From Actinomycetota bacterium (GTDB taxonomy: Bacteria; Actinomycetota; Thermoleophilia; RBG-16-64-13): a stretch of 64,000 nt of DNA. Shown one piece after another: positions 14,033 to 64,000 of the stretch. Positions within the stretch are counted from its first letter, which is position 1. Each line of letters starts with the position of its first letter. The DNA is taken from contig JAHJSA010000069.1 of assembly GCA_018830645.1 (NCBI GenBank), positions 55,279 to 119,278 of the forward strand. Reading direction: 5' to 3'. Below the pieces are notes generated by a model. The model had not been told where the DNA came from. It saw only the letters and a program-made list of their open reading frames with translations, and searched no databases. Position numbers and translations under genes: made by a program.

Positions 14033-14289
14033 TGTCTTTCCTCCGTGTGACTTGGCGCCGTTCGTGCCCGGAGCATACCCAGCGAACGCCGAAGAAGCAC
14101 ATTCCGGTCTCTGCGCGGCACCGGCGCTCGCCCTACTCGATCTCTTCGGGTAGCAACGGCCGCAGCAAGAGCGAGTAGACCTCGGCCCCGCTCTTCCAGA
14201 GAGTGAGCGTGTCGGCCTGCACCAGCAAGGGGCGGAGGGTCTCGAGGTCGGCACCGAGCCAACTGGCTGGGTCGGCAAGCTTCGAGCAG

Positions 14290-16068
14290 CTAGAGGCGCT
14301 CCACCCGCCGCGAGAGTTCTTCGAACTCACGGGCGGAATCGGCGAGGTGCCTCTGCATCTGGTCGAGCCGTTCCCGCTCCGAACGGACGAACCGAGTGTA
14401 GGGCGCGACCGCCTCCCGGATACGGAAGGCGCTCCGCTCGATCTCCTGGTCGAACGAAACGGTGAGCATGCGCATGAGCTCGTCGCGCAGCTCCCCGATC
14501 TTCTCCGACAGCTCGCTCTTGGCCTTTCGACGTCGGTTCGGGAGTACGAACAGCCCGAGTGTGGCCATGGTGCCGGCGGCGAGGGCGCCGGTCACGTCCA
14601 CGAGTTGCGTCGTCGCCAGGAGCGTGATCACGGCCCCCAGGCCGAGTGCGCCCACCTCCAGCACCGCGATGCCGGCCACGGCGCTCTGAACGGAGTCGGC
14701 CAGGCGGGTCGACTCGAGGTCACGGTCGTAGCCGTCGATGGTGCGTTGCGCGGCGCGGCCGACCGTGTCGAGGAGCTGGCGGCGATCGTAGTCGAAGCTG
14801 CCTATCTCGCCGATCACCCGATCGGGGTGGTTGGACCGGCGGCGACTCAGGTGCTCGCCCACAGCCTGCCACTGGCGCAACTCGGCGCTGATGACCCAGT
14901 CGATGATCTCCTCCACCTTCTTCTCGATCTGCTTGGGAGCGTCGGCGATCACCTTGCGCTCGAACTCCCCCTTGATCTTCGACTTGTTGATCAGGTCGAA
15001 CGTGCGCGTGATGCGGATGGTCTCCTCGAAGAACTCGTTGCCGCGCTTCTCGAACTCGTGGAGCACGTTGTCGACATCGGTGAGGCGGAAGCGGAACTCC
15101 CGCGTGAGGTCTTCCTGATAGAGGTCGAGCTGACGCTCGATGTCGTCGAGCGCGGTGAAGTCGCCCTTGAGCAGCTCGATGCGCCCCTCCACCGCCTCGG
15201 TGTAGCGCCGGTTCAGGCTCAGGCCTACCCCGAGCGGATTGAGGAGCTTCAATCGGACGCGCTCGGTCTCGTCGAGCGTCTCGACCACATACTCTTCGAG
15301 GGCGGGGAAACGACTACGGGCCATGCGGTCCGCGTCGGGGCGCGCCGAGGCGCTCTCGCCGCCCTCACCGCTCTCGCCGCTACCGCCTTCGAGCTTCGCC
15401 TCGAGCGCGAGCCGCGACGACACCGCGAACACCACCGGCGCGAAGCCGAGAAGGCGGTCGGCGTTCTCGACGATGAAACGCTCGATCTCGGCGATCTCGT
15501 CGTCGCCTCTCAGGATGTCGACCTTGTTGACCACGAACACGATCTTCTTGCCCCACTCGCGGATCGCCTCGATGAAGCGGCGCTCGCTCTCGGTGAACGG
15601 ACGGTCGGCCGAGGTGACGAAGAGCACCAGGTCGGACCGGGGCACGAACTTCTGCGTTATGGCCTCGTGGTCCCGATCGAGGGCGTTCGTGCCCGGGGTG
15701 TCGACGATCTGCACCTGGCGCAGCAACTCCACCGGAGCGGCGATCCGCACCACCCCGTCAGCACCGTCGTCGCGGGCCACGATGGGCCCATACGAGAGTG
15801 CGTGGATTCGCGTGGTCGTGGGCGTGACCCCCTGTTCGAGCAGGTCGCTGCCCAAGAGGGCATTGATGAAGGTGCTCTTGCCGGCGTTGAACTCCCCTGC
15901 CACGACAACCAGGAAGAGTTCGTCGAGCTGGTGGATCGAGGCCTCGAGCGTGGCCTGATCGTCGCGGGCGGCCTCGAACCGGGCCAGCGCCACCTGGAGT
16001 GCCGCGAGCAGACGCCGCACCTCAGCGAGGAGCTGCTCGTGACTATGAGTGAGTATCTTCTTCAGCAC
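14290..16068 (-). CDS. Bacterial dynamin-like GTPase
   Basis: GEFNAGKST (G1), DTPG (G3) and NKVD (G4) motifs, plus a long helical C-terminal region. Confidence 0.8.
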   Translation of the reverse strand: MLKKILTHSHEQLLAEVRRLLAALQVALARFEAARDDQATLEASIHQLDELFLVVVAGEFNAGKSTFINALLGSDLLEQGVTPTTTRIHALSYGPIVARDDGADGVVRIAAPVELLRQVQIVDTPGTNALDRDHEAITQKFVPRSDLVLFVTSADRPFTESERRFIEAIREWGKKIVFVVNKVDILRGDDEIAEIERFIVENADRLLGFAPVVFAVSSRLALEAKLEGGSGESGEGGESASARPDADRMARSRFPALEEYVVETLDETERVRLKLLNPLGVGLSLNRRYTEAVEGRIELLKGDFTALDDIERQLDLYQEDLTREFRFRLTDVDNVLHEFEKRGNEFFEETIRITRTFDLINKSKIKGEFERKVIADAPKQIEKKVEEIIDWVISAELRQWQAVGEHLSRRRSNHPDRVIGEIGSFDYDRRQLLDTVGRAAQRTIDGYDRDLESTRLADSVQSAVAGIAVLEVGALGLGAVITLLATTQLVDVTGALAAGTMATLGLFVLPNRRRKAKSELSEKIGELRDELMRMLTVSFDQEIERSAFRIREAVAPYTRFVRSERERLDQMQRHLADSAREFEELSRRVERL

Positions 16069-16114
16069 CAGAGAGCTTCCAGGTCGATGGGGTCATCAGG
16101 GCGAAACGATACCA

Positions 16115-16191
16115 CGCCGCCCGCGTAGCGCCGCCCGGCACCATTCGCCCCCGTAGCGTCCTCTCAGGGCGCCGCCCGCGTAGCGCCGCCC
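16115..16191. repeat. Perfect 22-bp direct repeat CGCCGCCCGCGTAGCGCCGCCC, two copies 55 bp apart
   Basis: Seen directly at 16115-16136 and 16170-16191. It lies in the intergenic region upstream of the dynamin-like gene. Confidence 0.6.
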
Positions 16192-25959: not shown

Positions 25960-26625
25960 CTACACGCCAAGGAGGCCCATGATCTCCGATAACGACGCGA
26001 GGTAGTGATCGGGCGGCGCGGCAGCGAGCGCCTCGCGCGTGCTCTCGCCGCCCTCGATGATAGCCACGGCCACCCCCGCGTCGCGCGCCGCGGCGACATC
26101 GGTGCGGCTGTCTCCCACGAAGAGCGCCTCCCCGGGCGCGACCCCGAGGATGTCGAGTGCGCGGCGAAGGCCATCACCGTCGGGCTTCATGAAACGCACA
26201 TCGTCGCGACTCAGCACCAGGTCGAACCACGGACGGATGCCGAGATCCTCGATGGCGGCGCCCAATGCCCGCCGGCCGATATTGCTCACCACACCCACGT
26301 GGAATCCGGCACGACCCAGCGCTTCAAGGGTCTCGGCCGCGCCCTCACGGAGTTGCCAGCGCGACAGCGCGTCGAGGTCGTACGCGTCGTACACAGCATC
26401 GAGCGCCGCGTGGAGCACCGCCTCGTCGGCGGGCGCCTCGGGAGTGCGCAGTGCCAGGTTCCACATGCCCGAGTAGCTCTCGCCGGCGAAGGCGTCGGGA
26501 GAGAACCCCAAGGCCTCGTAGCCCCGGCGAAGCTCCGCCTCGCCCTCCTCGAGGCGCCACTCGAAGCTCACCAGCGTGCCCTCCATGTCGAACAGTGCTG
26601 CGCGAACGGTCGTCTCGGCCGTCAT
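25960..26625 (-). CDS. HAD-superfamily hydrolase (subfamily IA)
   Basis: LFDMEGTL motif I, S/T motif II and K...GDSRTD motifs III/IV. Confidence 0.7.
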   Translation of the reverse strand: MTAETTVRAALFDMEGTLVSFEWRLEEGEAELRRGYEALGFSPDAFAGESYSGMWNLALRTPEAPADEAVLHAALDAVYDAYDLDALSRWQLREGAAETLEALGRAGFHVGVVSNIGRRALGAAIEDLGIRPWFDLVLSRDDVRFMKPDGDGLRRALDILGVAPGEALFVGDSRTDVAAARDAGVAVAIIEGGESTREALAAAPPDHYLASLSEIMGLLGV

Positions 26626-26673
26626 CGTGCCGCCTTCCTTGTGTCCGCAGCCGGCGCCCCCCGAAGTGCCCGC

Positions 26674-27408
26674 CTAGAGCTGATCGGCGCTGAACGTATC
26701 GCCTTGCGACATATCCCCTGTATCGAGGCCTTTGCGGAACCAGCGGACCCTCTGCTCCGAGGTGCCGTGGGTGAACGAGTCGGGCACCACGCGCCCGGTG
26801 GCTTCCTTCTGAAGCCGGTCGTCGCCGATTACGCTCGCCGCCTGCAGGGCCTCATCGATGTCGCCGGGTTCGAGCACCTGCCAGTTCTCTTGCGCATGAT
26901 AGGCCCACACTCCGGCCAGGAAGTCCGCCTGCAGCTCGAGACGCACCAGATACTGGTTGTACTCGGTCTCGCTCACCTGACTGCGAAGTTCGCTCACCTG
27001 CTCACTGATGCCCAGAAGGTTCTGGACGTGGTGCCCCACCTCATGGGCCACCACGTACGCCTGGGCGAAGTCACCGGGAGCGGCGTGACGTCTGCGCAGC
27101 TCGTCGTAGAGGCGCGGCTCCTGGTACGTGCGCCCCTCTTCCTCGAAGAGCTGCTGCCACACCTCCTCGGTGTCGGCGAGCACCACCCCGATGAAGTCGG
27201 CCAACTCCTGCTCCTCGGCAGTGGGCGCCGCCACTTGCTGCGACGACACCCCTCCCTGGGTGAGCAACTGGGCGGGGTTCCCGCCGAGCAGCAGGAACAA
27301 CACCGCCAAGATGATCGACCCCACGCCGCCACCCAACGCCAGACCGCCCCGCCGCGTGCCGCGGCGATCCTCCACGTTCTGGCTCGTGCGTCTGCCTCTC
27401 CATTTCAT
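26674..27408 (-). CDS. YpfJ-family putative neutral zinc metallopeptidase
   Basis: N-terminal TM segment and AHEVGHHVQN, a HExxH-type zinc site. Start taken at MKWRGRR. Confidence 0.7.
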   Translation of the reverse strand: MKWRGRRTSQNVEDRRGTRRGGLALGGGVGSIILAVLFLLLGGNPAQLLTQGGVSSQQVAAPTAEEQELADFIGVVLADTEEVWQQLFEEEGRTYQEPRLYDELRRRHAAPGDFAQAYVVAHEVGHHVQNLLGISEQVSELRSQVSETEYNQYLVRLELQADFLAGVWAYHAQENWQVLEPGDIDEALQAASVIGDDRLQKEATGRVVPDSFTHGTSEQRVRWFRKGLDTGDMSQGDTFSADQL

Positions 27409-27637
27409 ACATGCCCCGGTCGTGGGAAGGTGCCCGGATACGGCGACTCGACGCACCTGTCGCGTCGGCCGGTCCGAATCCCGATTACCCGCCGTCCGTC
27501 ACTCCAAACACCCGTTGCCCGGGTCGGTGGCCCGCGTGCGACAACGCCCATCACCGGTCGCACTACGAGGCACGGCGCGGGTCGCGCCCCAGCCCCGTAC
27601 GAGGTGCCATCGCGTGTGACACGGTATCATTCACCCC

Positions 27638-28435
27638 ATGTCTCACGTAGAAGACCCGCCCCTGGCCCGGTGGACCGAAGCTGCCCGGAGCAGGCGCTCG
27701 AGAAGAGTGTACCTACCCGGGCGGCCGATCGCGGGAGCCGAAGCAGAGGCGCTCACCCAGTTCTGCGCGACGTACTCACCCTTCCCCGGGGCACGTGCCA
27801 TCGTGCTGGCCGAGGCACCGCCCGAGATCTTCACGGGCTGGCTGCTCGGCGTCTATGGAAAGGTATCCTCACCGTCGGCCCTCGTGTTCGTGGGCGACAG
27901 AAGGCTTCCCGATGCGGCCGCCCGAACAGGCTACACGGCCGAAGGCGCGGCGCTGGAAGCGACGGCCTTGGGATTCTCCACCTGCTGGATCGGAGGAGGT
28001 GTCCGCCGCCGCGAAGTGATGTGGATGCTGGGTCTTGAAGAGCACGAACACGTCTATTCGATCTCGGCCCTTGGATACTCCCACGAAGACAAGACCCTCG
28101 GCGAACGGGCCACGGCGGGCATGGCCCGGGCGGGTAGTCGGCGCTCCCTGGAGGCCATCGCGCCCGGTAGCGAGTTCTGGCCGGAGTGGGTCAAGTCCGG
28201 GCTCGAACTCGTGCGAGTGGCTCCTTCGGCCACGAACCGTCAGCCCTGGCGCTTCGCGCTGGAGGGGAGGTCCGTGCGCCTGTTCTTCGAGGGCCGAGAC
28301 ACCCCGGTGATCTCAAAGCGCCTCGACTGCGGCATCGCCATGCTGCATTTCGAGCTCGGTGCCCGTTCGGCTGGAGTCGAAGGTCGTTGGGAACTCCTCG
28401 AAGGCAACGACGTGGCACGCTGGACATCGACCTAG
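27638..28435 (+). CDS. Nitroreductase-family protein
   Basis: RRSRRVY near the N-terminus and APSATNRQPWRF near the C-terminus resemble the FMN-binding nitroreductase fold. Confidence 0.55.
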   Translation: MSHVEDPPLARWTEAARSRRSRRVYLPGRPIAGAEAEALTQFCATYSPFPGARAIVLAEAPPEIFTGWLLGVYGKVSSPSALVFVGDRRLPDAAARTGYTAEGAALEATALGFSTCWIGGGVRRREVMWMLGLEEHEHVYSISALGYSHEDKTLGERATAGMARAGSRRSLEAIAPGSEFWPEWVKSGLELVRVAPSATNRQPWRFALEGRSVRLFFEGRDTPVISKRLDCGIAMLHFELGARSAGVEGRWELLEGNDVARWTST

Positions 28436-32862: not shown

Positions 32863-33069
32863 GCCGACACCTCCGTCATCCCGCCGCGTGCCGCGGCTCG
32901 CTTCCGCACGACCGCCCGCACCTTCCGGCGAGCCGTACGACCCCGGCTACCATCGTATCGGGCCGGGCACGAGCGCGCGACCCCGCTGAGCCGCGCATGT
33001 CGCCCACCGAACACCACTTCGGTATGATGGGATGCGTCGATTGAACCCGCGCAGCTTGGAGGCGAACAC

Positions 33070-34185
33070 GTGGAGGACTCGACGATTCACACGACTCACG
33101 AGCGCCTGGCAAAGCACCTCGCCGCCCTGGGCATGGGCCTCCCGGCAACGGCGGACCTCGTGGAAATCCTCCAACGTCTGCTGACCCAGGACGAAGCTGA
33201 GCTCCTGCTGGCCTTGCCCACCAACATCGCGCCCCTTCAGGTGGCTACCGTGGAGCAGATCGCGGCGGCGGCGGGAGTCGACCAGCCTGACGAGATCGAG
33301 GTGGCTCTCGATCGCCTCCTCGCTCGCGGCCTCCTGTATTCTGGCCGCACACTGTCGGGCGAGCGCGGGTACGCCCTGCTGCAGGCGGGCTTCGGGTTCC
33401 CTCAGACGTTCTTCTGGGCGGGCGAGGAATCCGACGAGGCACGCGAGATGGCCGCGATGGTGTCGAAATACGCCAACCGACACGTCCTGCGCGAGATGTA
33501 CGCGGCGACACCCACGAAGGCCTACCGCTACGTGCCGCTCGACCTGTCTCTCACAGCCGACCAGCAGGCGGTGTATCCGCAACATGCGATGGACGGAGTG
33601 CTCGACAGGGCTCGCACCTTCGCCGTGGCGCACTGCCCTTGCCGAGTGGCCGTCGGCCTTCGGGGCCACGCGTGCGAGCATCCGCTCGAAGTGTGCCTCA
33701 AGTTCGACGAGTTGGCCGACTACGTAGTGGAGCGCGGTCTCGCCCGCAGCATCACCCGCGAAGAAGCTCGCGGGATCGTGCGCGCGTCGGCGGAAGCCGG
33801 ACTCGTGCACTTCGTGGACAACGCTCTCGGCGACGTCAAGCACAACTGCAACTGCTGCGGCGACGCGTGCTGGAACGTGGGTACGATACGCCGCCGGAAG
33901 ATCCCGCGCGACTCGCTGATGGCAACCTACTTCCTGCGCACGACGACCCGGGAGACGTGCAGCTCCTGTGGCATGTGCGCCGAGGTGTGCCCGGTCCACG
34001 CCGTCGACGTGGAGTCGGGAGAACCGGACGTCGATCTCGATTGGTGCATAGGCTGTGGTGTCTGCGTCACCCGGTGCGCGGACGGGGCGGCCGGTCTCGC
34101 CCTTCGCACCGACCTCGCCCACGAGCCGCCCCCCGATTTCGCCGCGCTCCATCGCACGATCCTCGGCGAGAAGAGCGAGGCATAG
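33070..34185 (+). CDS. Fe-S protein, paralog B (same architecture as 30060..31370)
   Basis: HCPCRVAVGLRGHACEHPLEVCL, CNCCGDACW (CCG-like), CSSCGMCAEVCP and CIGCGVCVTRC. Confidence 0.7.
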   Translation: MEDSTIHTTHERLAKHLAALGMGLPATADLVEILQRLLTQDEAELLLALPTNIAPLQVATVEQIAAAAGVDQPDEIEVALDRLLARGLLYSGRTLSGERGYALLQAGFGFPQTFFWAGEESDEAREMAAMVSKYANRHVLREMYAATPTKAYRYVPLDLSLTADQQAVYPQHAMDGVLDRARTFAVAHCPCRVAVGLRGHACEHPLEVCLKFDELADYVVERGLARSITREEARGIVRASAEAGLVHFVDNALGDVKHNCNCCGDACWNVGTIRRRKIPRDSLMATYFLRTTTRETCSSCGMCAEVCPVHAVDVESGEPDVDLDWCIGCGVCVTRCADGAAGLALRTDLAHEPPPDFAALHRTILGEKSEA

Positions 34186-34366
34186 CGAGAGCGACGGCGA
34201 GGACGACCGCGGGGGCGCGCGAGGGGCGCGAGGCGCTGCGCTTGAACGCCCCAGCGCCGCCTGACCAGTTTGTCGCACCCGCCACCTGGGCATACAGACG
34301 TGGCCGCGAAGCGTCCGCTCGCGGCCACAGACAACGTGACAGAGGGACACCCGGAGGTGCCGGAAG

Positions 34367-34606
34367 ATGGAAGAACTCGTGAAGCTCGTGACGGAGAAGA
34401 CATGGATCTCGGACGACATGGCCCGCAAAGCCGTCCAAGTGGTACTCGGCTTCCTGAAGGACAAGTTGCCGGCCCCCATAGCCGGCCAGATCGACGGCCA
34501 GATCGACGGCCTGATCAGCGGCGGAGCAGGCGGAGCAGGCGGAGCAGCCGGAGGCGCGATGGACAGCGTGACCAAGGGGCTCGGCGGCCTACTGGGCAAG
34601 GACTGA
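34367..34606 (+). CDS. Small conserved hypothetical protein with a Gly-rich C-terminus
   Basis: 79 aa. N-terminus MEELVKLVTEKTWISDDMARKAVQVVLGFLKDKLP looks like a conserved small-protein family. Preceded by GGAGG. Confidence 0.45.
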   Translation: MEELVKLVTEKTWISDDMARKAVQVVLGFLKDKLPAPIAGQIDGQIDGLISGGAGGAGGAAGGAMDSVTKGLGGLLGKD

Positions 34607-34625
34607 GACCACTCCTCGCGACAAC

Positions 34626-34859
34626 ATGCCGACGCCCTGGGGCGATCCGCCCAGACTCGAAGAACTCGAAACTCGGCTGGACGAGGTGGAGCGCGGCCTG
34701 CCGGGGATCCTCGCCCTATCGGACAAGGCGGGCCTCTACCTGCGTAGGGAGCTCGATTCTCTCCGAGCTGAGTCACGATTGCAGGTGGAACGCTGGACAC
34801 GAGTCACGGAGAGAGCCGACGCCCTGATCGCGGCGCTCGACGACCCGCCACCGAGTTGA
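34626..34859 (+). CDS. Hypothetical small coiled-coil protein
   Basis: ORF only. 77 aa. Confidence 0.2.
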   Translation: MPTPWGDPPRLEELETRLDEVERGLPGILALSDKAGLYLRRELDSLRAESRLQVERWTRVTERADALIAALDDPPPS

Positions 34860-45879: not shown

Positions 45880-46344
45880 CCCTCCCGTCTCGCCGCAGCC
45901 TGCACCTCTTGACTGTACTTCGCGCCATAGGCGCACCGCAACCCGGGACGACCCTCGCATACCGACCGGCTCAGGCGCCGGAACGAGTCAAGGTGCCCGG
46001 GGGCGACGGTGCACGACGCTGAATTGCCCCCGTTCCCGTGTGCATGTACAGCGTTGCGCGAGAGCGCTTCGAGGCTCACAATCGTGATGGGCCGAACCCG
46101 GGCGCCGGGTCGGCGTACAGTGCGATCGGGAGCCGACAGCGGTTCATCCCGTGTGGACTCTGACAAGCGGACCCACCTTCGGGTGGCCCGCGCACAATGA
46201 CTGATCGAGGTCGCACCCCTAGAATCGGGAGAACAGGGCGCCACGATTGAAGAACACGACTGAAGAAACCCGCGAGCCACTCACCCGCTCGAGGGAACAG
46301 CCGCCCGAGGGGCGGGACGAAACGCGTTCGACTGGAGGCGAGGA

Positions 46345-47706
46345 ATGCAGGAGTACGTCGCATCGGTGTTGGCACAGGTCAAAGCCAAGAACCCGGCAGA
46401 GCCCGAGTTCCACCAAGCGGTGGAGGAGGTCCTCGAGTCGCTTGAACCCGTGCTCGAGCGTCACCCGGAGTACCGCGCCGGCAAGATCCTCGAACGCATC
46501 GTCGAGCCCGAACGCGTAATCATCTTCCGCATCCCCTGGGTCGACGACCAAGGGCTGGTGCAGGTGAACCGAGGCTTCCGCATCGAGATGAACAGCGCCA
46601 TCGGCCCCTACAAGGGCGGACTGCGCTTCCACCCCTCGGTGAACCTGGGCATCTTGAAGTTCCTGGCCTTCGAGCAGGTGTTCAAGAATTCCCTCACCAC
46701 TCTGCCCATGGGCGGGGGCAAGGGTGGCTCCGACTTCGACCCGAAGGGCAAGAGCGACAACGAGGTCATGCGTTTCTGCCAGAGCCTTATGACCGAGCTC
46801 TTCCGCCACATCGGCCCCAATACCGACGTGCCGGCCGGCGACATCGGTGTGGGCGGTCGCGAGATCGGCTACATGTTCGGACAGTACAAGCGCCTGCGCA
46901 ACGAGTTCACGGGCGTGCTTACCGGCAAGGGCATCAACTGGGGCGGTTCGCTCGTCCGCCCCGAAGCCACCGGCTACGGCACGATCTACTTCGCCCAAAA
47001 CATGATGGGCACCAGGGGCGAGACCCTCGAAGGCAAAACCTGCTTGGTGTCCGGCTCGGGCAACGTGGCCCAATTCGCCACCCAGAAGCTCATCGAACTC
47101 GGCGCGAAGCCGGTGACCCTCTCCGACTCCAACGGCTACATCTACGACGAAGCCGGCATCGACGAGGAGAGGCTCGCCTTCGTCATGGACCTCAAGAACA
47201 AGCGCCGCGGTCGCATCAAGGAGTACGTCGAGAAGTACCCGTCGGCTGTGTATACCGAAGTGGAGCTGGGCGCCGAGGTGAACCCCATGTGGGATCACGC
47301 CGCTGACTGCGCCTTCCCCTGCGCGACTCAGAACGAGATCAGCGGGACCGACGCGGCCAACCTGGTGAAGAACGGCGTGCACTTGGTGAGCGAGGGGGCG
47401 AACATGCCCACCATGCCTGACGGCGTCTCCCAGTTCCTCGACGCCGGCATCCTCTACGGACCGGGGAAAGCCTCCAACGCCGGTGGCGTCGCCGTGTCGG
47501 GCCTCGAGATGACGCAGAACAGCATGCGGCTCAACTGGACCCGTGAAGAGGTCGATCAACACCTGCACCGCATCATGCATGACGTCCACGCCTCGTGCGT
47601 ACGAGCCGCCGACATGTACGGCACCCCCGGCAACTACGTGAACGGCGCCAACATCGCCGGCTTCCTCAAGGTCGCCAACAGCATGCTCGACCAGGGCGTG
47701 GTATAG
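46345..47706 (+). CDS. gdhA: NADP-specific glutamate dehydrogenase
   Basis: GGGKGGSDFDPKGKSD, the Glu/Leu/Phe/Val dehydrogenase active-site signature. 453 aa. Confidence 0.9.
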   Translation: MQEYVASVLAQVKAKNPAEPEFHQAVEEVLESLEPVLERHPEYRAGKILERIVEPERVIIFRIPWVDDQGLVQVNRGFRIEMNSAIGPYKGGLRFHPSVNLGILKFLAFEQVFKNSLTTLPMGGGKGGSDFDPKGKSDNEVMRFCQSLMTELFRHIGPNTDVPAGDIGVGGREIGYMFGQYKRLRNEFTGVLTGKGINWGGSLVRPEATGYGTIYFAQNMMGTRGETLEGKTCLVSGSGNVAQFATQKLIELGAKPVTLSDSNGYIYDEAGIDEERLAFVMDLKNKRRGRIKEYVEKYPSAVYTEVELGAEVNPMWDHAADCAFPCATQNEISGTDAANLVKNGVHLVSEGANMPTMPDGVSQFLDAGILYGPGKASNAGGVAVSGLEMTQNSMRLNWTREEVDQHLHRIMHDVHASCVRAADMYGTPGNYVNGANIAGFLKVANSMLDQGVV

Positions 47707-55147: not shown

Positions 55148-55402
55148 ATGGATCAACCCCCCGTCAAGCTCTATGCTCTTAGCACCTGCGGCCACTGCAA
55201 GCACACGAAACAGCTTCTCGACGAGTGCAACGTCGTGTATGACTGCATTGATGTGGACAAATGCGATGCCGAGGAGCGTCAGGCGGTCCTTGACGAGGTG
55301 CGCGCGGTCAACCCCAACTGCTCGTTCCCCACCATCGTCATCGGCGACAAGGTGATCGTGGGCTACAAGGAGGCCGAGATCAAAGAGGCCTTGGGGCTGT
55401 GA
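55148..55402 (+). CDS. Glutaredoxin-like protein (CGHC active site, NrdH/YruB-like)
   Basis: VKLYALSTCGHCKHTKQLL in an 84-aa thioredoxin fold. GTGA-coupled to the next gene. Confidence 0.7.
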   Translation: MDQPPVKLYALSTCGHCKHTKQLLDECNVVYDCIDVDKCDAEERQAVLDEVRAVNPNCSFPTIVIGDKVIVGYKEAEIKEALGL

Positions 55403-55737
55403 GGAACGACGTCCGAGCCTTGTACGAGCGGCTTGGCCCTCTGCAGGAGAAGAAGGGCTACCCGTTCAACGCAGACGTGGAGACCGTGGAAAGCCTCCTC
55501 GAAGGCCTGCTTGTCAACAAGGAGCGCTACGGGTACATGAGTTGTCCGTGCCGCCTCGCGGTGGGCGACAGAGAACTCGACAAAGACATCATCTGTCCGT
55601 GCGACTATCGGGCGCCCGACGTAGAGGAGTACGGCGCGTGCTATTGCGCTCTCTACGTGTCGCCGGCCTGGAACGAGGGCTCCTTGCCCCGGGACACCGT
55701 ACCGGAGCGGCGCCCTATCGGGCGCCTTCCCTACTAG
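55399..55737 (+). CDS. Ferredoxin:thioredoxin reductase catalytic-subunit homolog (FtrC-like)
   Basis: CPCR...CPC...CYC spacing (YMSCPCRLAVGD...IICPCDY...YGACYCALYV) as in the FTR catalytic subunit. Confidence 0.7.
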   Translation: MRNDVRALYERLGPLQEKKGYPFNADVETVESLLEGLLVNKERYGYMSCPCRLAVGDRELDKDIICPCDYRAPDVEEYGACYCALYVSPAWNEGSLPRDTVPERRPIGRLPY

Positions 55738-55824: not shown

Positions 55825-57021
55825 TCAGCCCGCCGCTTTCGCCTCCGCGTACGCCCATTCGATCCAGGGGAAGGCGGCCTCGAGATCGGAGGTCTCGACC
55901 GTGGCCCCGCCCCACAGCCTAAGTCCGGGAGGCGCGTCGCGATAGGCGCCCACGTCGAAGGCGGCGGCTTCAGCCTCGAGCAGCGAGGCGACCTTCTTCG
56001 CCACCTTCGCTTGGTCCTCCGCCGAGAGCCCCTCGAACCACGGGTCGACGATCTTGAGGCAGATCGACGTGCACGAGATGGTCGCGGGATCCTCCGCCAG
56101 GAAGTCGACCCACGGAGTGCGGGCCACCCAGCCGGACACAGCGGCGAGGTTACGCTCGCTGCGTTCGACGAGCCCCAACACACCGCCAACGCTCTCCGCC
56201 CACGTCAGGCCATCATGGGCGTCTTCCACGCAGAGCATGCTGGGAGTGTTGATCGTGTCCCCCTGGAAGATGGACTCGTTCAGCTTCCCACCCTTGACCA
56301 TGCGGAACACCTTGGGCATCGGCCACACGGGAGAGTAACTCTCGAGGCGTTCCACCGCCCGCGGGCTCAAGATCAGGACGCCGTGCGCGGCCTCACCGCC
56401 GAGGACCTTCTGCCAGGAGTAGGTGACCACATCGAGCTTGTCCCAGGGTAGGTGCATGGCGAACACCGCCGAGGTGGCGTCGCAGATGGTGAGGCCCTCC
56501 CGCTCGGCTGGGATCCAGTCGCCGTTCGGCAGGCGCACTCCCGAAGTGGTGCCGTTCCAGGTGAAGACCACGTCGCGCGAGAAGTCCACCTGCGTCAGAT
56601 CGGGGAGCTTCCCGTAGCCCGCGACGAACGTGCGCACGTCCGGCAGCTTCAGCTGCTTGACGATGTCGGTGACCCACCCCTCGCCGAAGCTCTCCCAGGC
56701 GCACACATCCACGCCTCGAGCGCCAAGGAGCGACCAGAGGGCCATCTCCACAGCCCCGGTGTCGGAGCCGGGGACGATGCCAAGCCGGTACCCCTCCGGA
56801 AGACCAAGCATCTCCTTGGAGCGCTCGATCAGGCTCTTCAAGCGGGCGCGCCCTTCCTTGGAGCGGTGCGAGCGGCCAACGTAGGCGTCGGATAGCACGG
56901 ACGGGTCCCATCCTGGTCGTTTTGCGCAGGGGCCAGATGAAAGATGCGGTCTGACTGGGCGCTCGGACGGCTTGTCCACGGCACTCACTCCTCTAGCTTC
57001 GGGATCCATCGACTCAAGCAT
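55825..57021 (-). CDS. serC: Phosphoserine aminotransferase
   Basis: [11 protein letters not shown], the signature of the actinobacterial/archaeal-type SerC, plus a PLP-lysine region. Confidence 0.8.
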
Positions 57022-59725: not shown

Positions 59726-60148
59726 TTGGACAGGATCGAGTTCATCAGCAAGAACGACGGGATGATCCGCCAGTTCGGCATGCGGGTCGAGGAGGCCGGA
59801 GACGGGTACGCCAAGGTCTCGGTGGTCGTGGAAGACGCCTTCCTCAACCAGCACGGTGTTGCCCACGGAGCCCTGGTGTTCGCCCTTGCCGACGTGGCAT
59901 TCGCGATCGCCGTGAACTCCCTCACCGACGCCATGGGGGTACAGTGGAGTCTCAACATCCTGCGCGCCGCGCGGGCCGGCGAGACTCTCACGGCCGAGTG
60001 CTCCACGGTGCACCGCGGCTCGCGACTGTTCGTCGTGCACTACACGGTCACATCCAACAGCGGCAAACTCGTCGCCCAGGGACAGGCCACGGCGCTGCCG
60101 GTGGAGAACACCGCCATCAAGACCGGGGGCGACGCGCCCGCGGGGTGA
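59726..60148 (+). CDS. PaaI/YbgC-like hotdog-fold thioesterase
   Basis: HGGALVFALADVAFA region typical of PaaI-family thioesterases. 140 aa. Confidence 0.75.
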   Translation: MDRIEFISKNDGMIRQFGMRVEEAGDGYAKVSVVVEDAFLNQHGVAHGALVFALADVAFAIAVNSLTDAMGVQWSLNILRAARAGETLTAECSTVHRGSRLFVVHYTVTSNSGKLVAQGQATALPVENTAIKTGGDAPAG

Positions 60149-60380
60149 GGGCGACCACCTCCCACGGCAGATAGCCCTCCGACCGCACGACCGTGCCGCC
60201 TACTGTGGTGGTGGGCACGGTGGGAACCGCAGGCGCAGGCTCGCTCCACACCACGTGTATCTTATCGCCGAACTCATGGAGCAGCCGCGCGAGCGTTCCC
60301 TCGCGGAACGCGCTCCTTTCGGAAGCGGAGTAGTCCTGCACGGCGACGCGGCGCTCCAGGACTTCGATCACCACGACCAT
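60117..60380 (-). CDS. Hypothetical protein (87 aa)
   Basis: ORF only. 3' overlap with the PaaI gene. Confidence 0.2.
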   Translation of the reverse strand: MVVVIEVLERRVAVQDYSASERSAFREGTLARLLHEFGDKIHVVWSEPAPAVPTVPTTTVGGTVVRSEGYLPWEVVALTPRARRPRS

Positions 60381-60689
60381 GAGGTCATCCCTTCACCCGG
60401 CGGACGGAACTCGGAGCGGACCGCTCCCCAGAGCACCGTCCGCGCGCAGCTCTACGCGCCGTCTGTGCACGGCAGTCTACCGCATAGAAAGCATGCTCCC
60501 ATGGTAAGCTACATCCGATCACTGACCTGTTGGATCACTGGGTCGTGGGCGACGCCCGAACCGGCGGTTCCGCACCGTCGGCACGTCGAACGAGCCTCGC
60601 GTCGCCGGTAGCCTTCATCGGCCGACCGCGAGGCGCAGGAGCATCCTCGCCACACACCCATCTTACGAGTAGGAGGAGACCGGCGACGT

Positions 60690-63600
60690 ATGGCCACGCT
60701 CGGGATCGACATCGGCTGTATCAGTACGAAGATGGCGGTTGTGGGAGAGGAGTCGGACCGCGAGGCCTTCGCCCGACTCGCACACGACCACCCGCTGTTC
60801 CGCACTCCCCCGGCCTCAGCGGCCGCGGATGAGGGCTCGACGGGGGCGCCGCTCCTGGTGACCGAGTACCGCCGCATCACCGGTAGCCCCATCGAAAGCT
60901 CCCGTGGTCTGCTCTCCGAGGTGCTCGAAGCTCTACCTCCCGACTCCGTGTCGGGCATCAGGGCCACCGGCTCGGGTGCCAAGCTCATCGCGTCCGGTTT
61001 GGGCGCCGGCATCGAGAACGAGTTCAAGGCGATCGCGCGGGCCGTGGGCACGCTCCACCCAGAGGTAGCGTACGTCTTCGAGATGGGCGGCGAGACCTCG
61101 AAGTTCATTCAACTCGAGACAGACCCCGACACGGGTCGAGTGGGCATCGCCGACTACCAGACCAACGGGGACTGCGCGGCGGGCACCGGTTCGTTCATGG
61201 ATCAACAGGCGAACCGCCTGCTGTACGAGGTCGAGGACATAGGCGAGATCGTGTGCGGCGCCGGCAAGGCCGCCACCATCGCGGGCCGCTGCTCGGTGTT
61301 CGCGAAGTCCGACATGATCCACGCGCAACAGAAGGGTTACCAACCGCCCGAGGTCCTCAAAGGTCTCTGCAACGCTGTCATCCGCAACTACAAGGGCACG
61401 ATCGCCAAAGGCAAGCATGTCGACGGCAAAGTGGCCTTCATCGGTGGGGTCGCGGCGAACGAGGGGGCGGTCGAAGCCCTACTCGAAGCCTTCGAACTCC
61501 CGCGGGAGCGCCTCCTGATCCCACGTGACTACGCGTGGATGGGGGCCATCGGCGCTGCGCTCATCGAAGCGGATGAGGCGGCCGGCCGCGCTCCCATGGT
61601 GATCGACGTGCAAGACCTCGGCACTCTGCAGTCGGGTGGGCTCCCCATCTCCGATCCACTCAACATGGATCGCGTCATCCTTCTGCGCGACAGGGTGAAG
61701 CCGTACGAGCTTCCCGCCGAAGGCACGTTCGACGCGTATCTGGGTATCGACGTGGGCTCGGTGTCCACCAACCTCGTGGTGCTCGACGCCGACGGCGAGG
61801 TGGTCAAGGAGATCTACATCAAGACGGACGGCCGCCCGGTAGAAGTGGTCAACAGAGGTCTTGCTGAGATTCGCGACGAGCTCGGCGACAGGCTCGTGAT
61901 CAGGGGTGTGGGCACCACCGGCTCCGGGCGTGAGCTGATCGGGGAGTTGGCCGGAGCCGATACCGTGAACGATGAGATCACGGCCCACAAGACGGGCGCC
62001 ACGTTCATCGGGCGCAAGCTCATCGGCCGCATCCCCGACACCATCTTCGAGATCGGAGGGCAAGATTCGAAGTACATCAGCCTGCAGGACGGCGTCGTGG
62101 TGGACTTCGCCATGAACGAAGCCTGCGCCGCGGGCACGGGCTCGTTCCTCGAAGAGCAGGCCGAGAAGCTCGGCATCAGTATCATTGGCGAGTTCGCCGA
62201 ATTGGGCCTGGGCGCCCCCTCCCCCGTGCGACTCGGAGAGCGCTGCACGGTGTTCATGGAGCGCGACGTCAACTCGTATCTGCAGCGTGGGGCGGAGAAG
62301 GCGGATCTCGTGGCCGGCCTCGCCTACTCGATCGTCTACAACTACCTGAACCGCCTGGTCGGCACGCGTCACGTGGGCGACACCATCTACTTCCAGGGCG
62401 GCACCGCCTACAACGACGCCGTGGCCGCCGCGTTCAGCCAGGTGCTCGACAAGGAGATCATCGTACCGCCGCACAACGGCGTGGTGGGAGCCATCGGCAT
62501 GGGCCTGCTCGCCCGCGAGAAGATGTCGGCCACGGGCGACATCTCGCGCTTCCGGGGCTGGGACCTCGAACAGGTGGACTACACGATCCGCGAGTTCACG
62601 TGCAAGGGTTGCACCAACGAGTGCGACATCCGCCAGTTCACCATCGGCGACGAGAAGACCTACTGGGGCGACAAGTGCTCCGACCGGTACCGCAAACGGG
62701 CCAAGGTGGACAAGACCCCGGTGATACAAGACCTTCTCGCCTTCCGCGAGAAGGTGGCGTTCTCCTACATCGTCGACGACCAGAGCCAAGCGCCCGTTGA
62801 AGCTCGCAAGACCGACCGTGACGGGGCGCCCGACTTCTCCGGCATGGTGCGCACCGGCTCTGGCGCGCGCCTGGGCACCGTGGGGATCCCCCGCTCCATG
62901 TACACGTTCGACCGCCTACCCTTCTGGTCGGTGTTCTTCAAGGAGTGCGGCTTCGACGTACTCATCTCGGGTGAGACCGACAAGCACATCCGCGAGGCCG
63001 GGGTGGATCACTCGGTGGCCGAGCCGTGCTTCCCGATACGAGTGGCCCATGGGCACGTGTCGCAGCTCTTCGGGGGCGGCGCCGACACGGTGTTCATCCC
63101 GAACATCCTCAACGAGGAGACCGATCACCCCGAGATCGAATCCCACGCGTGCCCCTGGGGGCAGACCCTCCCCTGGGTCGTCCGGGCGGCTCCGCATCTC
63201 GAGCAGTACGCGGACCGTATGCTCACTCCCACCATCCACTTCCGTCGCGGGCCGCGCTATCTGAAGGAGTCTCTGGGGAAGTCGGTCAAGCAGTTCGGAG
63301 TCAGACAGAAGGTCGTCGACCACGCGGTCGACCGAGCCTACGAGGCCCAAGCCAGGTACAAGAACGCACTCGTGCAGGCCGGCAGCGACGCGCTCGCCGC
63401 CATCGAAGAGCAGGGAGAGATGGGGATCGTGCTCCTGGGACGCGGCTACAACGTGTACGACTCGGGCGTCAACATGGATATCCCCGCCAAGCTGCGCAAG
63501 TACTATGGGGTGAACGTGATCCCCCTGGACTTCCTGCCGCTCTGGGGAACGCCTACGCAGGATGTCGTGCCGAACATGTTCTGGAACTACGGACGGCGCA

Positions 63601-63869
63601 TGATCCAGGCCGCGAAGTTCGTGGCTGAGCGCCCATACCTTCACATCATCTACATCACGAATTTCAAGTGCGGCCCCGACTCGTACATCAAGCACTTCGT
63701 GCGGACGGCCTCGGCGCAGCCCTTCCTCACGCTGCAGTTCGACGAGCACACCAACGACGCCGGCGCGATGACCCGCTGCGAAGCCTACCTCGACAGCAAG
63801 GGGTTCCTGCGCTGGTGGACCCGCGACGCGCAGGCCGCCCAAGTGCCGGCAGTGGGAGAGAGAACGTGA
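60690..63869 (+). CDS. Fusion of two BadF/BadG/BcrA/BcrD (HgdC-type) ATPase 'activase' modules with a C-terminal dehydratase-like (DUF2229-type) domain
   Basis: Two ASKHA starts (GIDIGCISTK; GIDVGSVSTN). Cys pairs after each module for a bridging [4Fe-4S] cluster. About 400-aa C-terminal domain with conserved Cys/His. Confidence 0.8.
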   Translation: MATLGIDIGCISTKMAVVGEESDREAFARLAHDHPLFRTPPASAAADEGSTGAPLLVTEYRRITGSPIESSRGLLSEVLEALPPDSVSGIRATGSGAKLIASGLGAGIENEFKAIARAVGTLHPEVAYVFEMGGETSKFIQLETDPDTGRVGIADYQTNGDCAAGTGSFMDQQANRLLYEVEDIGEIVCGAGKAATIAGRCSVFAKSDMIHAQQKGYQPPEVLKGLCNAVIRNYKGTIAKGKHVDGKVAFIGGVAANEGAVEALLEAFELPRERLLIPRDYAWMGAIGAALIEADEAAGRAPMVIDVQDLGTLQSGGLPISDPLNMDRVILLRDRVKPYELPAEGTFDAYLGIDVGSVSTNLVVLDADGEVVKEIYIKTDGRPVEVVNRGLAEIRDELGDRLVIRGVGTTGSGRELIGELAGADTVNDEITAHKTGATFIGRKLIGRIPDTIFEIGGQDSKYISLQDGVVVDFAMNEACAAGTGSFLEEQAEKLGISIIGEFAELGLGAPSPVRLGERCTVFMERDVNSYLQRGAEKADLVAGLAYSIVYNYLNRLVGTRHVGDTIYFQGGTAYNDAVAAAFSQVLDKEIIVPPHNGVVGAIGMGLLAREKMSATGDISRFRGWDLEQVDYTIREFTCKGCTNECDIRQFTIGDEKTYWGDKCSDRYRKRAKVDKTPVIQDLLAFREKVAFSYIVDDQSQAPVEARKTDRDGAPDFSGMVRTGSGARLGTVGIPRSMYTFDRLPFWSVFFKECGFDVLISGETDKHIREAGVDHSVAEPCFPIRVAHGHVSQLFGGGADTVFIPNILNEETDHPEIESHACPWGQTLPWVVRAAPHLEQYADRMLTPTIHFRRGPRYLKESLGKSVKQFGVRQKVVDHAVDRAYEAQARYKNALVQAGSDALAAIEEQGEMGIVLLGRGYNVYDSGVNMDIPAKLRKYYGVNVIPLDFLPLWGTPTQDVVPNMFWNYGRRMIQAAKFVAERPYLHIIYITNFKCGPDSYIKHFVRTASAQPFLTLQFDEHTNDAGAMTRCEAYLDSKGFLRWWTRDAQAAQVPAVGERT

Positions 63870-64000
63870 GCACCGAGACCAAGGCCGCAGGCAACGGGAA
63901 GGCCACCCGGGAGCAGGCGGAGCGCGCATACATGGGCACGTCGGCGCCCAAGAGCCTCCGGAGCGCCGAGAGCAGCCCAATGGTGAGCGGTGAGATCGAC
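63866..64000 (+). CDS. Partial CDS, GTGA-coupled partner of the activase fusion (possibly the catalytic dehydratase / double-cubane-type subunit)
   Basis: GTG at 63866 overlaps the upstream stop. An open frame continues to the window end. Confidence 0.35.
   Translation, partial: MSTETKAAGNGKATREQAERAYMGTSAPKSLRSAESSPMVSGEID

Follow-up and report, generated by a model that had tools for sequence, protein, structure and literature searches.

The window analysed here is a stretch of 64,000 nucleotides (nt) of contig JAHJSA010000069.1 (positions 55,279 to 119,278, forward strand) in assembly GCA_018830645.1, from an Actinomycetota bacterium of the class Thermoleophilia. At its 3' end lies a gene encoding a protein of 1059 amino acids (aa), followed by the beginning of a second, overlapping gene. 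Both are annotated as "hypothetical protein" at NCBI and both are related to the PlsA/PlsR-Ger family of ether-lipid enzymes. The features of the locus, in window coordinates, are as follows.

60671..60676, + strand: Shine-Dalgarno-like AGGAGG, 13 nt 5' of the ATG (direct reading of the sequence)
60690..63869, + strand: plsA/ger-like gene, an open reading frame (ORF) with an ATG start, 1059 aa (MBU2602914.1, KKA32_12245)
60696..61574, + strand: ATPase (ASKHA) module 1, residues ~3-295, first BcrAD_BadFG stretch (Pfam)
61737..62519, + strand: ATPase (ASKHA) module 2, residues ~350-610, BcrAD_BadFG at 351-608 (Pfam)
62595..62693, + strand: Cys4 linker, C638-x2-C641-x3-C645 ... C663, kept in 68 of 69 relatives
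62871..63824, + strand: reductase half 1, DUF2229 core, residues ~728-1045, with conserved C780, H789, C821 and C994
63866..64000, + strand: 5' end (45 codons) of the plsR-like partner gene, GTG start; the window ends inside this gene

The 1059-aa protein is composed of two successive activase modules, a Cys4 linker and the DUF2229 reductase half. Pfam PF01869 (BcrAD_BadFG) matches in two stretches (E 1e-64) and PF09989 (DUF2229) covers residues 730-948 (E 5e-55, profile positions 1-217 of 218). The NCBIfam family TIGR00241, acyl-CoA dehydratase activase, also matches (E 8e-78). A first-pass annotation of the window had proposed an ORF of this length with two BcrAD/HgdC-type modules. The ORF, the two motifs GIDIGCISTK and GIDVGSVSTN, Pfam and TIGR00241 all agree with that description, at a strength well above chance. 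In a search of PDB sequences, the protein matched activases only, namely HgdC (1hux), HadI (4eht), MbdQ/P (9gai) and DCCP-R (7yyl), the last being the reductase of a double-cubane-cluster protein (DCCP). Module 1 is matched by TIGR02261 (BcrD-like, residues 111-291) and by MbdP (9gai_C, residues 102-256). Module 2 is matched by HgdC (E 1e-29) and DCCP-R (7yyl_E, E 3e-21). The part C-terminal to the activases had been described as a Cys/His-containing domain of about 400 aa. Its Cys/His content is borne out by C780, H789, C821 and C994; its length is closer to 450 aa, made up of the Cys4 linker and a DUF2229 core of about 320 aa. Among the families named beforehand for this region, DUF2229 was recovered. 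PF06050 (HGD-D) gave no Pfam match with the 1059-aa protein or with the partner (checked to E <= 10 for the latter), and membership of the core in HGD-D was rejected. Two minus-strand ORFs, 61479-62789 (436 aa) and 62916-63980 (354 aa), lie antisense to the gene. As they are located inside a strongly matched gene in DNA of 66% G+C, where such open frames are common, we read them as non-coding.

The GTG start of the second gene, at 63866, overlaps the TGA stop of the large gene (63867-63869) to give GTGA, and the purine-rich GGGAGAGAG is found just 5' of this junction. The coupling noted in the first-pass annotation is thus present. The identical 1059-aa protein is encoded on two public contigs, one from ENA (136 kb) and one from Logan. 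On each of them, the next gene encodes a protein of 456 aa (MBU2602915.1, KKA32_12250; L001:13177-14547), followed by a convergent dephospho-CoA kinase gene. KKA32_12245 and KKA32_12250 are consecutive NCBI locus tags of an "Actinobacteria bacterium" metagenome-assembled genome (MAG). In favour of the early GTG start, residues N10 and G11 of the partner do not vary among 36 homologues. At curated thresholds neither Pfam nor NCBIfam matches the partner; a DUF2229 fragment alone is seen, at E 1.6e-4. Profile-profile comparison identifies it as a paralogue of the DUF2229 core (97.6% probability, E 3e-12, 285 columns aligned), and in this alignment the three conserved cysteines of each half fall upon each other. 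The downstream gene, which might have proved unrelated, therefore encodes a diverged paralogue of the core.

AlphaFold2 models were obtained separately for residues 610-1059 of the large protein and for a 94%-identical proxy of the partner, each with a predicted TM score (pTM) of 0.80. Structure comparison shows that both halves have the fold shared by 2-hydroxyacyl-CoA dehydratases (HAD), benzoyl-CoA reductases (BCR) and DCCP, as the first-pass annotation had anticipated for the C-terminal domain. For the partner model the top fold matches are HadC (12.3), MbdN (12.3), BzdN (12.0), DCCP (11.6) and HadB (9.9). The sequence profile of the DUF2229 core gave only chance matches among PDB sequences, with no solved HAD or BCR chain, and the relation of the core to HAD, BCR and DCCP is thus seen at the level of the fold only. 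The two halves have the fold of the alpha/beta core of 2-hydroxyacyl-CoA dehydratases, with putative three-cysteine cluster sites. By analogy with HgdAB, HadBC and BzdNO, the DUF2229 half and the 456-aa partner should form an alpha/beta-like heterodimer.

Fourteen cysteines of the pair are kept in 68-69 of 69 diverse relatives. Four belong to the activases (C162 and C201 in module 1, C479 and C519 in module 2; invariant in 69/69), four to the linker, three to half 1 (C780, C821 and C994) and three to the partner (C98, C133 and C398). H789 of half 1 is also invariant. This set matches the predicted iron-sulfur (Fe-S) complement of the PlsA/Ger family, and cluster binding is likewise predicted here. 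The Cys4 linker is probably a metal or Fe-S site, and could serve as an extra Fe-S relay or as a zinc site. It was modelled as short beta-hairpins with low confidence, at values of 35-47 in the predicted local distance difference test (pLDDT), and we found no description of it in the accessible literature on the family. A few relatives depart from the common pattern. A plasmid protein of Paraclostridium bifermentans (1282 aa, L006:3770-7618) has neither the linker cysteines nor the three partner cysteines, and a Treponema homologue (L047) is devoid of the linker cysteines. In Monoglobus pectinilyticus (L005:4013-7230), half 1, half 2 and a single activase are encoded, in that order, by three separate genes.

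The order of domains is that of a known family. Two BcrAD_BadFG domains followed by DUF2229 are the "BBD" signature by which Ger and PlsA have been described (PMC13159169), and the order "Act1, Act2, Red1, Red2" was described for PlsA/PlsR (PMC12838417). In Clostridium perfringens, plsA and plsR are two genes, CPE1194/CPE1195 (PMC12838417); single-chain PlsA is found in Enterococcus faecalis, Listeria, Lactococcus and Bifidobacterium. The pair studied here aligns end to end with single-chain proteins of 1400-1490 aa from Listeria and Collinsella. In the 1475-aa Listeria monocytogenes protein, residues 59-969 align collinearly with the 1059-aa protein (28% identity, E 4e-106). The partner follows at residues 974-1400 of the Listeria chain (23% identity, E 8e-34) and at residues 1067-1419 of the fused Collinsella aerofaciens protein. 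Fusobacterium animalis has the identical two-gene split, with proteins of 975 and 404 aa. The two genes are thus likely to be a split form of the PlsA/PlsR-Ger ether-lipid enzyme, acting on the sn-1 acyl ester of membrane glycerolipids.

Since 2021-2022 the family has been known to use membrane glycerolipids as substrate, at their acyl ester (PMC13159169, PMC9702350, PMC12838417). The enzymes reduce the sn-1 acyl ester to a vinyl ether (plasmalogen) or to an alkyl ether. Heterologous expression of the C. perfringens, E. faecalis, L. cremoris and B. longum subsp. suis proteins led to plasmalogens, and that of the T. maritima and D. alkenivorans proteins to 1-O-alkyl glycerols. In these experiments the ether lipids appeared only, or best, under anoxia (PMC12838417, PMC13159169). 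Listeria and the order Coriobacteriales have been named as pls carriers (PMC9702350). The earlier statement that large fused forms have no assigned substrate is therefore out of date. The same holds for the view that the fusion is unusual: a search with the 1059-aa protein finds over 8000 database proteins at E <= 1e-10, which is a lower bound, and the DUF2229 core alone finds 2848 representatives of 50%-identity clusters at E <= 1e-3 and 460 at E <= 1e-30. When species-representative genomes were scanned, 80 loci in about 15 phyla came up, mostly in MAGs and in cultured species; these did not include Thermotoga, C. perfringens or Desulfatibacillum. Within this large family, which has already been explained, the locus is nothing out of the ordinary.

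A homologue of the partner was detected in 67 of these 80 loci, in every case directly downstream of the large gene or in the same ORF. In 11 of the other 13, the sequence ends at or near the match, the exceptions being L047 and L037. The nearest named homologues come from Thermoleophilia and Gaiellales MAGs. In a neighbour-joining tree of 69 sequences, midpoint-rooted, without support values and built without the validated PlsA/Ger enzymes, the window gene belongs to a clade in which every complete member is split. Identity to the window protein in this clade is as follows.

Gaiellales: 72%
Thermoleophilia: 63-66%
Terriglobia/Acidobacteriota: 52-56%
Planctomycetota: 52-53%
KSB1: 50%
Bacteroidetes MAG: 49%

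Its sister clade is mostly fused (Nitrospirota, Syntrophaceae, Bacteroidales and Spirochaetes; 39-44% identity), and the most distant clade contains Listeria, Fusobacterium, Clostridia and Collinsella (28-32%). The split form dominates the clade of the window (L008-L019 and L042, with Thermoleophilia, Acidobacteriota, Planctomycetota and KSB1) and is sporadic elsewhere, in F. animalis (L007), Anaerolineae (L036), Eisenbacteria (L040) and Fibrobacterota (L068). Almost all remaining members of the sample, among L021-L087, have one ORF of 1400-1490 aa. Where the gene is split, the junction is repeatedly a stop/start overlap or a gap of a few bases. A "Thermotogaceae" MAG (L029) was considered as a link to Thermotoga and set aside: its protein groups with those of Spirochaetes and Bacteroidales, and a homologue search started from it showed no T. 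maritima or other Thermotoga protein among the matches listed.

On the model of the HAD and BCR enzymes, and following the scheme published for PlsA/PlsR, the two proteins would make up a reductase that is sensitive to oxygen, depends on ATP and belongs to the benzoyl-CoA reductase / 2-hydroxyacyl-CoA dehydratase superfamily. The tandem ATPase modules would form an intramolecular pseudo-dimer holding one [4Fe-4S] cluster on C162, C201, C479 and C519, to be reduced by ferredoxin or flavodoxin. ATP hydrolysis would then drive a low-potential electron, possibly through the Cys4 linker site, into the heterodimeric core, to which the DUF2229 half and the 456-aa partner would each contribute one three-cysteine [4Fe-4S] site. 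There, the ester carbonyl would be converted to a ketyl-type intermediate. More reduction, protonation and dehydration would yield the 1-alkenyl (plasmalogen) ether, and further reduction, the Ger-type outcome, would give the 1-O-alkyl ether.

The genes around the pair include those for RlmL, a PaaI thioesterase, a dephospho-CoA kinase and an NADase-like protein. Genes of lipid synthesis are absent from the immediate neighbourhood in the window, and none for a CoA-transferase, a 2-hydroxyacid dehydrogenase or aromatic degradation is found near the pair. The thioesterase gene, of the PaaI-type hotdog family (59726-60148, + strand), is located upstream; it matches TIGR00369 above the cut-off and TIGR02286 (E 1.5e-23) below it. 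The following 540-bp gap (60149-60689) contains a single called gene, an 87-aa ORF on the minus strand (60117-60380) that matches no family. Scans for Rfam families, promoters and terminators around the two genes gave nothing above chance, with no RNA family in the gap. G+C content is flat across the window (63-70%), and the possibility of horizontal transfer or of an island was set aside, as this gives no sign of one. About 5 kb upstream of the pair, a glutaredoxin gene overlaps a FeThRed_B gene (ferredoxin-thioredoxin reductase catalytic subunit; ~55148-55737, L001:4459-5048). They form a small ferredoxin-linked thiol redox pair. Five further ORFs of the window, of 398-677 aa, have no Pfam match at E <= 1e-6 in the frame tested: 14203-16128 (+), 26005-28038 (+), 32947-34800 (-), 46219-47589 (-) and 55825-57021 (-). 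Some overlap opposite-strand ORFs and may be in the wrong frame. Among ten ORFs of the window that were scanned, none was the OFOR or a B12 reductase named in the first-pass annotation.

In the close clade, Pfam scans of 20 flanking ORFs returned unrelated functions with scattered lipid-flavoured matches only. In Gaiellales, an MMPL-family transporter ORF (L008:6568-9225, +) opens 16 nt after the partner stop. In Thermoleophilia, a radical SAM/SPASM protein with generic SPASM matches only is encoded upstream on the same strand (L042:3072-4826, +). In Solibacteraceae, a ceramidase-like gene (L011:4292-5857, -) lies near the close relative. These neighbours hint at lipids, yet they are not conserved.

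Several observations weigh against the assignment to the ether-lipid family. Against the Listeria, Fusobacterium and Collinsella forms, the large protein reaches only 28-32% identity, and the partner 22-26%. The comparison set consists of these three genera, and the validated proteins Q8XL48/Q8XL47, Q835P9, AGL49404 and SHJ90043 are outside it. The split clade of the window has no experimentally characterised member, and a full-text literature search returned no paper on Thermoleophilia with ether lipids and Ger. The core fold is equally near CoA-ester dehydratases, aromatic reductases and DCCP. As to the neighbourhood, beside the absence of adjacent lipid-synthesis genes, none of 13 window neighbours recurs next to the relatives, so that synteny is not conserved. 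As no clade member is characterised, there is some room for a different substrate: an enzyme of the same superfamily, with the same electron injection, could act on a CoA thioester or on another carbonyl or unsaturated compound. The low identity to plasmalogen-type proteins and the separate clade would fit such an enzyme, as would the acyl-CoA thioesterase gene upstream on the same strand and the dephospho-CoA kinase gene downstream; moreover, ether lipids have gone undetected in some organisms that carry family members (PMC13159169). However, the thioesterase gene is 540 bp away and is not conserved beside relatives, and the surroundings are devoid of the CoA-transferase, dehydrogenase and aromatic-degradation genes looked for. 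The core matches DUF2229 and not HGD-D, and the 1515-residue layout, the Cys4 linker and the 14 cysteines are kept across the Listeria, Fusobacterium and Collinsella clades. We regard a non-lipid substrate as rather unlikely. A DCCP-type double-cubane-cluster system with a fused reductase, one of the options in the first-pass annotation, to which the DCCP-R match of module 2 (E 3e-21) could point, is highly improbable. Jeoung and Dobbek reportedly found in 2018 that the [8Fe-9S] cluster of DCCP needs six cysteines in one subunit. Each core half here has three invariant cysteines, not six, which makes such a cluster unlikely; besides, the core is a heterodimer of two diverged paralogues and not a homodimer, and HadC and BzdN score above DCCP in the structure comparison.

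Within the ether-lipid assignment, the nature of the product has to be considered. The two-gene layout is that of plsA-plsR in C. perfringens (PMC12838417) and of F. animalis, which might suggest a plasmalogen (vinyl-ether) synthase, that is, a true PlsA/PlsR orthologue rather than a Ger-type enzyme; all evidence for family membership applies to this possibility too. Yet split layouts arise in several clades, so that the layout is not diagnostic, and the neighbour-joining tree puts the gene far from the Listeria, Fusobacterium, Clostridia and Collinsella clade. PlsA and Ger cannot be separated from sequence (PMC13274423), nor can sequence tell an alkenyl from an alkyl product. We consider a plasmalogen synthase possible, if doubtful. 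Because the gene is far from the plasmalogen-type clade of Firmicutes and Fusobacteria and groups with environmental anaerobes, we lean slightly towards a saturated, Ger-like alkyl ether as the product.

Bacterial ether lipids make the "lipid divide" between bacteria and archaea less sharp, and palaeoclimate proxies based on branched glycerol dialkyl glycerol tetraethers (brGDGT), of which the anaerobic producers are largely unknown, depend on them as well. The locus predicts a capacity for ether lipids in an uncultured Thermoleophilia-like actinobacterium. A recent preprint (bioRxiv 10.64898/2026.06.23.733905) reads "BBD-only" Ger homologues of Acidobacteriota and Chloroflexota as proteins without a second reduction domain. 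In the clade of the window, the second reduction domain is the next gene. Since the partner is below the Pfam cut-off, surveys of Pfam architecture may misjudge split loci, which checking the next gene corrects. There is an outside chance that the split clade is a distinct ether-former, for example with the missing sn-2 or a tetraether-type (brGDGT-like) activity in anoxic soils or sediments. If the clade does form sn-2 or tetraether-type bonds, Thermoleophilia would be unrecognised producers of brGDGT-like lipids.

Compared with known systems, the pair is closest in organisation to PlsA/PlsR. The order of two activases, DUF2229 half 1 and reductase half 2 is the same, the proteins are collinear, the 14 cysteines are kept and the split point is as in C. 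perfringens and F. animalis. It differs by its identity (28-32% and 22-26%), its separate clade and its high-GC Thermoleophilia host. With Ger (T. maritima Tmari_0479/AGL49404 and D. alkenivorans SHJ90043), it shares the "BBD" core and an occurrence in environmental anaerobes outside Firmicutes. The clade of the window is nearer to the fused environmental clade, including L029 (39-44%), than to the Firmicutes clade. The form described here is split, whereas each validated Ger is one protein of about 150 kDa.

The dehydratases and reductases HgdAB/HadBC with HgdC/HadI, BzdNOPQ and MbdNOPQ have in common with the pair the ATPase family, the three-cysteine sites and ATP-driven electron injection. 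They have no sequence-level match with the core, and their ATPase is a separate dimer, whereas here it is an internal tandem fused to the core, with the extra Cys4 linker. The substrate of the characterised Pls/Ger relatives is a lipid ester and not a CoA thioester. Finally, DCCP/DCCP-R of C. hydrogenoformans (7yyl) resembles the pair in fold and ATPase family. The present proteins differ from it in that each core subunit has three conserved cysteines instead of six, the core is heterodimeric and the ATPase is fused.

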